Shown here one piece after another: positions 1-12,782 of a stretch of DNA of 12,782 nt. Source of the DNA: a virus (lineage: Duplodnaviria; Heunggongvirae; Uroviricota; Caudoviricetes); IMG/VR virus record IMGVR_UViG_3300020721_000006. One strand, 5' to 3'. The stretch's first letter is position 1. Each line of letters opens with the position of its first letter. The notes beneath the pieces are model-generated. The model saw only the letters and a list, made by a program, of their open reading frames with translations, ran no database searches and was not told where the DNA came from. The position numbers and the translations under genes are program-made.

Positions 1-2
1 AT

Positions 3-68
3 GTTACGGTAAGGTGGTGTATATCGAGAGAAGCTGATGTTAATTGGTTTGTTTTGAGGTGGTCATGA
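3..68 (+). CDS. Array A gene A0, 3' end only (...EADVNWFVLRWS)
   Basis: Read manually; TGA 66-68 overlaps ATG 65; truncated by window edge. Confidence 0.75.
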   Translation, partial: VTVRWCISREADVNWFVLRWS

Positions 69-256
69 AAACATTTTATATGGAAGATTTTCCAAGAGTA
101 GTAGAGGCTGCTTCCAGTCTTGGTTATGCTGAATTTTTAAGAAGAGATGGATTTAAAACTACAGAATATATTGGTAATAAGTTTGAAGTTAGTTATTGTC
201 CATCACATTGTATGAGTGAAGAAGAATATACTTGGTTTGTTTTGAGGTGGTCATGA
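65..256 (+). CDS. A1, 63 aa WFxLRWS-tail protein (D[FY]PKF/GYK subfamily)
   Basis: ATG in ATGA after GAGGTG; ends SEEEYTWFVLRWS. Confidence 0.85.
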   Translation: MKTFYMEDFPRVVEAASSLGYAEFLRRDGFKTTEYIGNKFEVSYCPSHCMSEEEYTWFVLRWS

Positions 257-495
257 AAGAACGTGAAATCAAATTAGGGGGTAGGTGGCATAGTTGTCCA
301 CGTTGTTGGCAGAATTTTATTATAGCATTGGATTTCCATGATGATGAATCTGACATTCAGAGAGATAGTAAAATACGAAAAGAGTTATTAAAGTTTAATG
401 CTAAAAGAATTGGTGATTTTAGAAGTGATGACGGTACAACAATACTATTTAAAACCCCAGTAGATAAGACTTGGTTTATATTGAGGTGGTCATGA
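253..495 (+). CDS. A2, 80 aa WFxLRWS-tail protein (paralogue of A33)
   Basis: ATGA-coupled; ends TPVDKTWFILRWS. Confidence 0.85.
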   Translation: MKEREIKLGGRWHSCPRCWQNFIIALDFHDDESDIQRDSKIRKELLKFNAKRIGDFRSDDGTTILFKTPVDKTWFILRWS

Positions 496-692
496 TAGAG
501 ATGATAGGAATAATAGCTAGTGATGATCAGTATTCATATAGAATTGGGTTTAGTGATAGACCTAAAATTCCATTAGAAGTAAGGCAATGGTGTCGAGAAA
601 ATTTTAATGAAGAACGATGCTATGTTGGAACATGGACTATTTGGTTTAAGACCTCTGCTGAGTTAAATTGGTTTATATTGAGGTGGTCATGA
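492..692 (+). CDS. A3, 66 aa WFxLRWS-tail protein (WCxxxF subfamily)
   Basis: ATGA-coupled; QWCRENF, ends NWFILRWS. Confidence 0.85.
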   Translation: MIEMIGIIASDDQYSYRIGFSDRPKIPLEVRQWCRENFNEERCYVGTWTIWFKTSAELNWFILRWS

Positions 693-901
693 ATATACTA
701 GAAATACCATTCTATACAGAATTGGATAAGAAGTTAGAAGAAATGTGGCGTCAAACTGAAGGCACTCCAGATGAATGGATTGATTTTATAAAAGAATTAG
801 ATAAAAATATAATAGGTGTAGAAGATAGAGCACAGAAAATTACTACTATAACATTTAGTAAACCAGAACATATAACTTGGTTCTTATTGAGGTGGTCATG
901 A
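689..901 (+). CDS. A4, 70 aa WFxLRWS-tail protein (paralogue of A14)
   Basis: ATGA-coupled; IPFYTELDKKLEE, ends TWFLLRWS. Confidence 0.85.
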   Translation: MNILEIPFYTELDKKLEEMWRQTEGTPDEWIDFIKELDKNIIGVEDRAQKITTITFSKPEHITWFLLRWS

Positions 902-1149
902 TTGACAAAATTATATTAAAATGTTCTGGGGCACACCGTGATCCACGCAAGGGTGTAGATTATTATATAGTTTCTAGGAGTAATCATTTTTATTGGATGT
1001 ATGATGAACAGCACACCTGGTGTGTAGAAACATTTGGTGAGCGAGGTGATTTTTCATCTAGTGATATATGTAGATGGTATCATAATGGTTCTGTTTTTTA
1101 TTTTTTAAATGAAGAAGATTGTAATTGGTTTATATTGAGGTGGTCATGA
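898..1149 (+). CDS. A5, 83 aa WFxLRWS-tail protein (WCxxxFG subfamily)
   Basis: ATGA-coupled; WCVETFG, ends NWFILRWS. Confidence 0.85.
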   Translation: MIDKIILKCSGAHRDPRKGVDYYIVSRSNHFYWMYDEQHTWCVETFGERGDFSSSDICRWYHNGSVFYFLNEEDCNWFILRWS

Positions 1150-1358
1150 TTGTATCGTGGAGTGATTTACCGTTATCTGTGCAAATGCATTTAGATGATA
1201 TCTCTGGATATACTAACACTAGTATTTTAACAAAAGAATGGATTAGTAATTTAAATGTGTGTTTGGAACCATTCACGGCAACATTTGATTTTGATGATGA
1301 TATTATTTACTTTGACAGTGAAGAATGTTATACTTGGTTTATATTGAGGTGGGCATGA
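1146..1358 (+). CDS. A6, 70 aa WFxLRW-tail protein (paralogue of A22)
   Basis: ATGA-coupled; WSDLP...LEPF, ends TWFILRWA. Confidence 0.85.
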   Translation: MIVSWSDLPLSVQMHLDDISGYTNTSILTKEWISNLNVCLEPFTATFDFDDDIIYFDSEECYTWFILRWA

Positions 1359-1540
1359 AAAGAATAAAGTTTGATACATATGATTTCCCAAAATTCATTG
1401 ATGCAACGGATGATATTATTGGGTGGAATGAATCTTTTATTTCACAAGGGTATAAGACTTATCAAAATGATTATAATAGTTATCCCAGACACAGTTTGAG
1501 TGAAGAAGAATATACTTGGTTTTTATTGAGGTGGTTATGA
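1355..1540 (+). CDS. A7, 61 aa WFxLRW-tail protein (D[FY]PKF/GYK subfamily)
   Basis: ATGA-coupled; ends SEEEYTWFLLRWL. Confidence 0.85.
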   Translation: MKRIKFDTYDFPKFIDATDDIIGWNESFISQGYKTYQNDYNSYPRHSLSEEEYTWFLLRWL

Positions 1541-1748
1541 TCAAAAGAATGAGCGGAAATTGGGTCAGGATTGGTGATAACGACGTTGAAGCAGGTAGAT
1601 GGTTAGAAGATAATATGGATGGAAAATTTGTCCCATATGAACGTTACAGTTGGTGGTATTCTATAGGCACACACTCACACGGTCATCCTATTGTTGTTTT
1701 ATTTCATGATGCTAAAGATATGACATTTTTTTATTGAGGTGGGCATGA
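1537..1748 (+). pseudogene. A8, array A gene with 1-nt deletion in T7 run (1726-1732) that removes the LRW tail
   Basis: Reads ATG ACA TTT TTT TAT TGA (stop 1737); one extra T gives MTFFLLRWA* ending at the ATGA of A9. Confidence 0.7.
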
Positions 1749-11397: not shown

Positions 11398-11633
11398 AAG
11401 AAAATGAATTAGAATTAGTTGGTGGTTGGAAGATGCTACCACAATGTTGGAGAAACTTTGTATCAGAATTTCAGTCAATTAAATTGACTGCTGATGAGCG
11501 TGAATGTGCAATTAGGGATAAATTAGTAGAGTTTAATGCCACCAGAGAATATCATGCAAGAGGATGGGGGAACTCAACGCTAGTGTTTAATACTCCAGCA
11601 GATAAGACTTGGTTCTTATTGAGGTGGTCATAA
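11394..11633 (+). CDS. A33, 79 aa WFxLRWS-tail protein (paralogue of A2)
   Basis: LPQCWRNFV...TPADKTWFLLRWS. Confidence 0.85.
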   Translation: MKENELELVGGWKMLPQCWRNFVSEFQSIKLTADERECAIRDKLVEFNATREYHARGWGNSTLVFNTPADKTWFLLRWS

Positions 11634-11749
11634 TGGTCTTGACATTTGCAATATTAATATGTATAATACTTGGAATTGTTAGTGGTATTGGATGTTCAGT
11701 GTTAATTGGTATCATACCATGGTTACTTGAACTTAGGAAAAATAAATGA
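11633..11749 (+). CDS. 38 aa hydrophobic single-TM protein (MVLTFAILICIILGIVSGIGCSVLIGIIPWLLELRKNK)
   Basis: Below the ORF-track cutoff; TAATG-coupled to A33 and ATGA-coupled to the next ORF. Confidence 0.6.
   Translation: MVLTFAILICIILGIVSGIGCSVLIGIIPWLLELRKNK
11639..11667 (+). promoter_or_regulatory. Perfect sigma70-type promoter TTGACA-N17-TATAAT inside the 38-aa ORF
   Basis: TTGACA 11639-11644, TATAAT 11662-11667. Confidence 0.7.
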
Positions 11750-11865
11750 TATTACAAATTTTAATGTGGGTTCTGATTGGGATTGCTATCTTTATGTCAT
11801 ATGGAATAGGTATATGGGCATACGACCAGATTGATATGTATTTTGAACGTAGGAGAAACAAATGA
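11746..11865 (+). CDS. 39 aa single-TM protein (MIIQILMWVLIGIAIFMSYGIGIWAYDQIDMYFERRRNK)
   Basis: ATGA overlaps at both ends; hydrophobic N-terminus with a basic tail. Confidence 0.65.
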   Translation: MILQILMWVLIGIAIFMSYGIGIWAYDQIDMYFERRRNK

Positions 11866-12389
11866 GTGAACCAAGAATATACCTAGATCTTGATGGCGTA
11901 TGTGCAGATTTTTTTACTGAATATGCCAAACTAGCTGGTATTGAGAGTGGTAACTACAGACACATACCACCAGCAAAATCTGACCCTACACTTCAATTAA
12001 TGGTGGGAACTGACTTCTTCGCTAGATTGCCTAAAACTGCAGTAGCAGATGAATTAGTAGAAATGGCAGTAAAATTATATGGTAGCTATTCTATATGTTC
12101 TAGTCCATTACGTGGTGACCATGAGAATAGTGAATACTGGAAAAATGTATGGATTAAAAACAATCTAAGAACACAACCCGAAGAAGTTATCATTACTACT
12201 AACAAAGCAAAATATGCTGTACAACAAGATGGCACTCCTAATATCTTAATAGATGATAGAGGTAATAACATCGATGCTTGGGAAAATGCAGGTGGTATTG
12301 GAATCAAATTTCAAGCAGATGAAGATTCTATTGATGTGGTTAAATTTGGGTTATTACGAGCAGCAATCCTTAGTAAATCGTATGCATAG
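11862..12389 (+). CDS. HAD-superfamily 5'(3')-deoxyribonucleotidase (NT5C-like), 175 aa
   Basis: Motif I YLDLDGVCADF, C-terminal ILIDDRGNNIDAWENAGGIGI; AGGAG SD upstream. Confidence 0.8.
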   Translation: MSEPRIYLDLDGVCADFFTEYAKLAGIESGNYRHIPPAKSDPTLQLMVGTDFFARLPKTAVADELVEMAVKLYGSYSICSSPLRGDHENSEYWKNVWIKNNLRTQPEEVIITTNKAKYAVQQDGTPNILIDDRGNNIDAWENAGGIGIKFQADEDSIDVVKFGLLRAAILSKSYA

Positions 12390-12394
12390 AAATC

Positions 12395-12430
12395 CATAAA
12401 TAATATATGGTGGCTTAGACCCATCATATG
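12395..12430 (+). promoter_or_regulatory. Possible T4-type late promoter (CATAAATA) followed by a 9-bp hairpin
   Basis: 7/8 match to TATAAATA at 12395-12402; stem 12405-12413/12421-12429. Confidence 0.3.
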
Positions 12431-12439
12431 GAGGTTATA

Positions 12440-12565
12440 ATGGATGAAGAGGTATTTACATGTATTATGTTGATTGTATTTGGGATATTAGTTATTGCAA
12501 TGACCCAACGTATAGTAAAAGCAGTATTTGAATTTTTTGGAATAAATGTCAACGATAAGAATTAA
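12440..12565 (+). CDS. 41 aa single-TM protein (MDEEVFTCIMLIVFGILVIAMTQRIVKAVFEFFGINVNDKN)
   Basis: GGAGGT SD at 12430-12435; hydrophobic core. Confidence 0.55.
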   Translation: MDEEVFTCIMLIVFGILVIAMTQRIVKAVFEFFGINVNDKN

Positions 12566-12782
12566 ATATGGTACCGGAATTCCAGGTTGGGCGAATGCCT
12601 GGAATCACGCGGCAGAAAAGTTACCGTACATAGAACATGACGATGAAAACTATATTGATTATTTGTATGACCGGTTGATAAAAACTTATAAACAATTCGA
12701 ATACGAAAATCATTGCAAATTCACACCAGATTATCATGAAATCCATTACATAGAATTTGAAAGTGCAGCACATTATAACTGG
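12546..12782 (+). CDS. A34, array A gene truncated by window end (...IEFESAAHYNW)
   Basis: Open frame from ATG 12546; ends in the pre-tail motif seen in A9, A16 and A22. Confidence 0.75.
   Translation, partial: MSTIRIKYGTGIPGWANAWNHAAEKLPYIEHDDENYIDYLYDRLIKTYKQFEYENHCKFTPDYHEIHYIEFESAAHYNW

Follow-up and report, generated by a model that had tools for sequence, protein, structure and literature searches.

The window analysed here is the whole of a 12,782-nt stretch of DNA from a tailed virus (IMG/VR record IMGVR_UViG_3300020721_000006), with 33% G+C and coding nearly all on the + strand. About 37 of its genes, arranged in tandem, belong to a single very large and unnamed family, whose proteins of 60-115 residues share a WFxLRWS-type tail encoded by a common DNA element at the gene ends (the junction). 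An earlier note on this DNA had listed 34 such ends. Complete gene ends of the form [WM][FL]x[LMI][RK][WL], followed by 1-4 residues and a stop, were found 33 times, and a 34th family end is truncated by the window edge at 12782 (...HYNW). The same note had described one array running across the window, which was borne out in part: the WFxLRW family (the A array) is present in three blocks, but 3797-7403 belongs to a different, MORN-like family (the B array). The arrays, and the single units referred to below, are as follows.

1..3800, + strand: A-array block 1, with 17 gene ends (68 to 3800) of the WFxLRW-tail family, ATGA-chained
1335..1358, + strand: example junction, comprising WFILRWA-stop of gene 1146-1358, the Shine-Dalgarno (SD) sequence GAGGTGG and the ATG of gene 1355-1540; left breakpoint of an exchanged cassette
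1537..1737, + strand: tail-broken cassette ending in …MTFFY-stop, with the DNA junction TTGAGGTGGGCATGA intact
2333..2577, + strand: family cassette with a frameshift; from the ATG at 2333 a frame of 18 codons is open, and the family frame of 80 codons (…WATEHFG…WFMLRWA-stop) lies at -1 after ATGAAAAAAG
3456..3800, + strand: chimeric member, residues 4-36 of which align with residues 95-127 of the T4 major capsid protein gp23; C-terminus WLIMRWS-stop
3797..7403, + strand: B array, 11-12 tandem MORN-variant/YwqK/DUF6745-like repeat genes
7393..8764, + strand: A-array block 2, 6 genes, the last with the tail WFLIRWS-stop
9273..11633, + strand: A-array block 3, 10 genes
12546..12782, + strand: family member cut at the window end (…FESAAHYNW)

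At the DNA level, a 24-bp pattern, TGGTTYNTNTTGAGGTGGTCATGA, was present in 29 copies with at most 3 mismatches, all on the + strand, while 0 were expected from 200 shuffles, in agreement with the common element of about 25 bp that had been proposed. Since it matches on the + strand only, the junction is not palindromic. Gene ends are spaced by about 180-280 bp and the genes abut as described before, the 33 junctions including 26 ATGA, 2 GTGA and 2 TAATG overlaps. The sequence TTG-AGG-TGG-TCA-TGA reads L-R-W-S-stop and also contains the SD sequence GAGGTGG and the ATGA stop/start overlap. The signals for gene n+1 are thus carried by TTGAGGTGGTCATGA, i.e. GAGGTGG and an ATG overlapping the TGA of gene n. 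The SD lies inside the preceding open reading frame (ORF), at a distance from the start within the 4-9 nt expected of coupled genes, with the geometry GAGG, 5 nt, ATG over TGA. N-termini of the type 'TTG MVYIEVVM...' in the mechanical ORF list were rejected, as they represent the junction read in the next frame; the real start is the ATG of ATGA, and each corrected start is preceded by GAGGTGG. A tail-pattern match at 6115-6141 was discarded as a false positive in another reading frame. The junction contains no -35/-10 pair. Seven terminator-like sites were found in the window, one of them (7839-7855) just upstream of the junction 7857-7880 and none inside the junction element. Over 115 IMG/VR stretches, belonging to many phages including jumbo phages, also contain the exact junction sequence.

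Codon usage was determined for 438 unique genes of the family, taken from 115 IMG/VR loci together with the window. TTG accounted for 79% of the motif leucine codons (18% elsewhere in the same genes) and AGG for 87% of the motif arginine codons (8% in the background). The stop codon was TGA in 83% of the genes, and 77% of the junctions had the ATGA overlap. The final codon nearly always ended in A (TCA, TTA, GCA, ACA, CAA, GTA or GGA), so that the last residue is variable. The bias was still present in 273 genes that had not been matched by the pattern used to fetch the loci. Because this bias builds an SD, the codon statistics indicate that codon choice reflects selection on the RNA beyond the needs of the protein. 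A second, separate layer of selection on the protein motif is indicated by synonymous and conservative changes that keep the peptide where the SD is lost. Lysine variants (AAA or AAG; 15%) destroy the SD and keep W-F-x-L-[RK]-W, TTA AGA variants at 10929 and 11374 likewise lose the SD and retain the peptide, and the W-F upstream, outside the SD, varies between TTT and TTC.

Two natural controls separate these layers. At 8741-8764 the tail WFLIRWS-stop is kept via TTA ATA AGA TGG TCT TGA, with neither SD nor ATGA and with no coupled gene after it; its TGA falls within the -35 box TTGACA. At 1714-1745 it is the peptide that is disrupted (…MTFFY-stop), while the junction persists in the DNA and is used by the following gene (start 1745). 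Two tails of block 3 read through a lost stop (WFALRWSHLL-stop and WFLLRWSCN-stop). Junctions with a mutated TGA (TGC or a lengthened tail) were seen at 10460-10489 and 9722-9754, and at L051:10927-11364, one of the related loci, such a mutation has given a 146-residue in-frame fusion of two cassettes. The frameshifted cassette 2333-2577, in which the frames part after ATG AAA AAA G, had an identical sequence in 6 of 6 strain contigs covering the site; it is either a recent pseudogene, with one A lost from the run, or expressed through slippage.

Gene order and content were compared with relatives, as the earlier note had suggested, and the array was not fixed: at 12 related loci single cassettes were present, absent or replaced between conserved flanks. 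Cassette 1355-1540 showed about 97% nucleotide identity to genes in the loci L073, L065 and L087, where it stands in three differing upstream contexts. Homology switches at the junctions 1335-1358 and 1517-1540, the flanks being unrelated, and core proteins of the L073, L065 and L087 phages are only about 40-54% identical to those of the window phage. Cassette 1745-1960 was 83% identical to L056:3212-3430, and here homology was limited by the start codon and by the junction that follows the cassette. Between L015 and L053, two extra cassettes lie between two junctions in L015, whereas L053 has a single hybrid junction, in which both L015 flanks are joined around a 27-bp identical core. This hybrid is, as far as sequence can tell, the signature of recombination between direct repeats. 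The same arrangements were found in independent samples (L036, L091 and L092; L045 and L022; L017 and L053; and the window strain contigs compared). The best paralogue within the window was adjacent in 0 of 28 window genes, and 22 of 29 had a closer relative in another phage. Adjacent near-identical duplicates could be observed in the relatives L026, L067 and L077. A cassette swap seemingly present between L026 and L077 proved to be two such adjacent duplicates in colinear loci of 93.7% identity and was dropped as evidence of reordering. Family copies numbered 5-6 in two near-complete genomes and up to 93 in a 94-kb fragment.

No recombinase gene was found in the window, which confirmed the earlier statement, or in the 10 kb flanking it on each side. 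In five related records, of which two are 97-100% complete, there was no match to the tyrosine recombinase family PF00589, for which all control genomes were positive, and the serine recombinase family PF00239 was absent from the same five.

To compare the gene bodies, the 7-residue tail was removed before BLAST analysis. The 512 tailless bodies fell into 92 components, those of the window into 16, in line with the unrelated-looking subfamilies noted before. Profile-profile comparison joined groups 3-9-18, 0-7-8 and 1-9. The largest group has the pattern …WCxxxFG…W…FxF..E.D..WFxLRWS with invariant M1, W20, W40, F53, F62 and W66. A profile of 37 members, built from this largest group, was searched against 1.84 billion proteins and retrieved 2277 clusters (50% identity, E<=1e-3); in 134 of the 150 best matches the motif ended 1-2 residues from the C-terminus. 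A single-sequence search of 5.8 billion proteins returned the query itself only. The family had no match in Pfam, PHROGs or PDB sequences, and all source names were 'hypothetical protein'.

AlphaFold2 models were of high confidence for the products of 8113-8313 (predicted local distance difference test score, pLDDT, 93.6) and 1355-1537 (pLDDT 94.9). The first model is beta-alpha-beta-beta-alpha and the second has the same element order with the first helix split in two; in both, the motif forms the last helix of a compact domain. The invariant aromatic residues of the motif align with invariant aromatics in every other secondary-structure element. Foldseek found nothing below E=0.68 in the PDB, and VIA-align returned only generic two-layer alpha/beta folds (ferredoxin/ACT/RRM-like), with Z<=6.5 for the first model and Z<=3.9 for the second. 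Among AFDB clusters and in BFVD, only unnamed proteins were matched, including phage proteins. The family is thus predicted to consist of small alpha/beta domains, mostly beta-alpha-beta-beta-alpha, with the conserved W-F-x-L-R-W as last helix. Since that helix closes the domain and the invariant aromatics are spread over all elements, the motif is probably a core element and no free docking peptide. The corrected N-termini share only M-[KI], and a common N-terminal targeting peptide, as in packaged effectors of the T4 internal-protein type, was not seen. From their position among early genes beside an Alt-like ADP-ribosyltransferase, their extreme diversification and their variable copy number, we infer that the proteins may be early factors of host takeover or anti-defence that vary in surface on a shared scaffold.

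The gp23 segment of the chimeric member 3456-3800 corresponds to what we take to be the Gol region, about residues 93-122 of gp23. Gol is described as a 29-residue stretch that binds EF-Tu and activates Lit and is the best-conserved part of gp23, residue numbers not being given (PMC3014915). The chimera is recurrent, with further cases at L023:2436-2792(-), L044:1887-2192(-), G001:75394-75723, G003:47343-47672 and G002:30904-31275; the N-terminal part of about 33 residues (ILSILRKVIPTTIAQDIISVQPMTAPLGRIFTV) is fused to differing WFxLRW-tail bodies. The same composition is seen in an ESM Atlas cluster that comprises 113 viral proteins, 114 aa in length. Some longer relatives, among them P0002 and P0005, carry an N-terminal segment G-[EQ]-[IL]-R-F-N-T-x-T-N-x-M-E-x-x-D-G-x-x-W. 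It presumably resembles an N-terminal motif of phage tail fibres, and would then be a second virion-protein fragment on this scaffold.

By exact-protein look-ups, the window was matched to freshwater metagenome contigs in ENA, JGI and Logan of up to 284 kb, and one array protein was also present on a 334-kb contig. On these contigs the array starts at L122:9186, some 0.6 kb before the window begins. Immediately ahead of it, at L122:9107-9160, lies a terminator hairpin followed by a TTGACA-17-TAAGAT promoter, resembling the promoter-early stem-loop (PeSL) elements of T4-type phages. Neighbouring genes encode a SegE-like GIY-YIG endonuclease, an ART-PolyVal ADP-ribosyltransferase joined to a GNAT domain, and two 5'(3')-deoxyribonucleotidases. 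Both a full-length gp23 major capsid protein and a protein resembling RecA/UvsX are encoded by each of two related, near-complete genomes of 338 and 383 kb in which the family occurs. The window has two perfect sigma-70 consensus promoters (8761 and 11639); promoter-like sites total 64 (71.6 in shuffles), and the T4-type late motif TATAAATA does not occur within it. The source is therefore probably an uncultured T4-related freshwater jumbo phage, and the region its early hyperplastic region. Neither megablast with the whole window nor tblastn with a well-conserved family member gave a match among 50,697 phage records; the family is known so far from uncultured phages only. When intermediate relatives were sought via the flanking ART-PolyVal protein, none was found in IMG/VR and one short metagenome contig in JGI.

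Taken together, the locus is probably a translationally coupled early-gene array in a hyperplastic region, whose junction doubles as a patch for homologous recombination, as PeSLs do, and which is no integron. The codons of the 24-bp junction complete the predicted helix of gene n, and the same bases give gene n+1 its SD and start. As the junction supplies an SD and an overlapping ATG, long polycistronic early transcripts would be translated by termination-reinitiation coupling. Each unit ends in the same 24-30 bp, in frame, bringing translation signals for whatever comes next. The junction is also the sole homology common to otherwise unrelated cassettes, where general homologous recombination of the RecA/UvsX type could delete, duplicate or exchange whole genes. 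The rearrangements described above for several relatives indicate general recombination at the junction, which looks like a by-product and not the work of a dedicated site-specific system. Conservation of the junction is explained by the protein fold and translational coupling. There is nothing to show that it is a specialised or unusually active recombination site.

Several results weigh against this explanation or narrow it. The earlier note had proposed that units are added, lost or reordered at the junction. Gain, loss and replacement with breakpoints at junctions were found in relatives, but in the phage's own population the A array was colinear in the contig places compared (99.4-100% identity), so that recombination at the window's own junctions is deduced from other lineages. 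Breakpoints were no more frequent at junctions than at other gene boundaries. Of the homology-block ends inside arrays, 66% were no more than 15 bp away from a junction (random 11%); in the control, outside arrays, 66% were equally close to an ORF boundary (random 9%). As ordinary gene boundaries give the same value, the figure was not used to argue for a special site. Likewise, two or more different neighbours were found for 31% of family cassettes and 27% of other genes (p=0.5). With breakpoints equally frequent at both, the comparison does not separate recombination at junctions from any recombination followed by selection for intact genes, the hybrids excepted. All relatives are metagenome assemblies. 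The 1355-1540 type was linked to the other subfamilies neither by profile-profile nor by structure search, so that a single common fold is not proven. No family member has a characterised homologue, and function is read only from context.

Of the other explanations, a dedicated exchange system, in which selection would have made the coding junction a site of recombination (an equivalent of attC or PeSL) that serves a shared pool, perhaps via mini-circles, is unlikely. It would fit the presence of the exact junction in so many phages, the near-identical cassettes in genomes with core proteins about 50% identical, the dispersal of paralogues (most having closer relatives in other phages) and the 93 copies on a single 94-kb fragment; the hybrid-junction deletion between direct junction repeats has the geometry that releases a circle. 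However, no tyrosine or serine recombinase was found in the five related records or near the array, and the site is non-palindromic and confined to one strand. Breakpoints and changes of neighbour are no commoner than at other gene boundaries, the constraints of protein and translation already account for the conservation, and the array is static in this phage's population. It is equally doubtful that the junction is a selected plug-and-play cassette end, a translated equivalent of attC or PeSL that is not palindromic, and that T4-related freshwater phages share a pool of thousands of small early genes. Were this true, any cassette could be placed at any junction in frame with its translation signals supplied, the vehicles being mini-circles joined at a junction. 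As a corollary, the scaffold would display variable or borrowed peptides, such as the Gol-like segment of gp23, as anti-defence decoys.

Docking of all members on one partner (virion, injection apparatus, protease or chaperone) through the tail as an address label, which would make the array a polymorphic effector library, takes up an idea of the earlier note and is now disfavoured. The idea draws on a motif that is near-invariant and close to the C-terminus even in distant relatives, on its retention in genes without a coupled downstream gene, and on a near-invariant Arg/Lys that a hydrophobic core would not need. Both high-confidence models, however, place the motif inside the fold as the last helix, and its invariant F and W belong to the aromatic set found across all secondary-structure elements. 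With correct starts there is no shared N-terminal targeting peptide, the last residue varies with its A-ending codon, so that the C-terminal residue itself is not recognised, and late promoters are absent from the window; the proposal is accordingly quite improbable. We consider it highly improbable that the genes are ordinary tandem duplicates which diverged in place, with the exchange being an artefact of metagenome assembly across a repeated junction. Adjacent near-identical duplicates do occur in three relatives, and the comparison sequences are all short-read assemblies in which the junction is a repeat. Against this, none of the best in-window paralogues was adjacent and the same arrangements recurred in independent samples. 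The identical core of 24-30 bp would be below read size and usual final k-mers, and chimeric assembly within one population would not give cassettes that are 94-98% identical in genomes with about 50% core protein identity.

A coupled array of this kind can be compared with several known systems. In T4-type phages, PeSL cassettes occupy hyperplastic regions, and mini-circles have been shown for them (Arbiol et al. 2010, PMC2839356; Comeau et al. 2014, PMC4122927). Both systems have a short conserved repeat bordering small early genes of unknown function in T4-related phages, and indels or replacements between relatives that are bounded by the repeat, although here no more often than by other boundaries. 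The enzyme would in both be general homologous recombination, and a PeSL-like terminator and sigma-70 promoter heads the present array. PeSLs are, however, intergenic and regulatory (promoter and terminator hairpin, then SD and start), whereas the present junction is coding, lacks promoter and hairpin, and consists of a protein helix and the SD and start of the next gene; transcription here passes through many cassettes. The comparison with an integron did not hold. The array is indeed one-directional, with small, mostly promoterless cassettes behind a common promoter and a repeated element ending each. But no integrase was found within the window and 10 kb around it or in the five related records, and the element is no imperfect palindrome, being translated and overlapping two genes. 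Evidence of site-specific recombination was not found for the array.

In translationally coupled operons, stop and start overlap as ATGA and the SD lies inside the upstream gene. The geometry of GAGG, 5 nt and ATG is the same here, and the codon choice of the upstream gene is bent to build the SD; in the array, however, the SD codons are those of a conserved structural L-R-W motif, inherited with the domain and repeated dozens of times. Under the modular theory and 'boundary sequences' of lambdoid mosaicism (Susskind and Botstein; Clark et al. 2001), short border sequences were reportedly proposed as crossover points. These are likewise short conserved gene-border stretches between otherwise unrelated modules. 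Unlike the present patch, which is systematic and independently conserved, they are sporadic, and they are debated against illegitimate recombination with selection.

The array bears on how phages acquire and shuffle their many small early genes of unknown function, a class to which most known anti-defence and host-takeover factors belong. It offers a clean and abundant case, in which the DNA of a single protein motif would at once specify part of a fold, provide the following gene with its ribosome-binding site and start, and carry along a patch of homology. Given this triple role, gene-sized pieces could be lost, duplicated or imported without breaking frame or expression. Newly defined with it is a very large protein family unnamed in databases (no fewer than 2277 clusters when grouped at 50% identity, with as many as 93 copies on 94 kb), with a confident predicted fold and, judging from alignment, a recurrent fusion to the predicted EF-Tu-binding region (Gol) of the capsid protein.

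The B array at 3797-7403 is a second tandem family unrelated to the WFxLRW family. Its repeats, GxKxWYLNGxLHRxDGPA, resemble MORN-variant, YwqK and DUF6745 proteins, and it has an overlapping junction of its own, …NIYA-stop over ATGCCTGA. In Pfam searches, the B proteins of the window remained below the gathering scores (DUF6745 at most 22.9 bits, threshold 27; MORN_2 12.7 bits, threshold 29.6), and a relative from L067 passed for DUF6745 with 34.8 bits. Structural neighbours in the Atlas were DUF6745/MORN and YwqK clusters (template modelling scores, TM, 0.79-0.90). This array was the only structurally polymorphic part in the population: 4708-5245 (538 bp) was missing in L116 and L122, and another variant was present in L124. 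Since its genes share long near-identical blocks of DNA, unequal crossing-over seems to be ongoing there.

The remaining features of the window and its surroundings lie between and behind the A-array blocks.

8761..8789, + strand: sigma-70 promoter of perfect consensus (TTGACA-17-TATAAT), overlapping the stop codon of the last block-2 cassette
8818..8970, + strand: Polynucleobacter-1 RNA motif (RF01718), 62.7 bits against a gathering score of 37
9248..9265, + strand: intrinsic-terminator-like hairpin closing the non-coding unit
11639..11667, + strand: second perfect sigma-70 consensus promoter, within the first of two 38-39-codon hydrophobic ORFs
11862..12389, + strand: 5'(3')-deoxyribonucleotidase (phrog_2643, E=1e-19); closest cultured relative Methylophilales phage Melnitz, 46%
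L117:11327-11533, L118:11691-11849, L119:11703-11843 and L121:6575-6781: NUMOD3-motif ORF

The first promoter, the RNA motif and the hairpin form a non-coding unit inside the array (8761-9265). The Polynucleobacter-1 motif was described from Burkholderiales and in freshwater and estuary metagenomes (PMC2864571), and its presence within a phage may be a hint at the host. Downstream of the RNA motif, 9093-9100 (ACCGCCTC) could pair with the junction SD GAGGTGGT. Behind the second promoter, on both sides of the nucleotidase gene, lie three ORFs of 38-41 codons (11633-11749, 11746-11865 and 12440-12565) that encode single hydrophobic helices, e.g. MVLTFAILICIILGIVSGIGCSVLIGIIPWLLELRKNK.

Two Cys-rich proteins of 222-226 residues upstream of the array had been taken by eye for HNH endonucleases; Pfam gave no confirmation and the claim was dropped. 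Downstream of the window, a small ORF with a NUMOD3 motif, which is a DNA-binding motif of homing endonucleases, was observed in some strain contigs between the SegE-like GIY-YIG gene and the second nucleotidase. Its length varied among the contigs and it was not called in L116, which may reflect a homing-endonuclease polymorphism.

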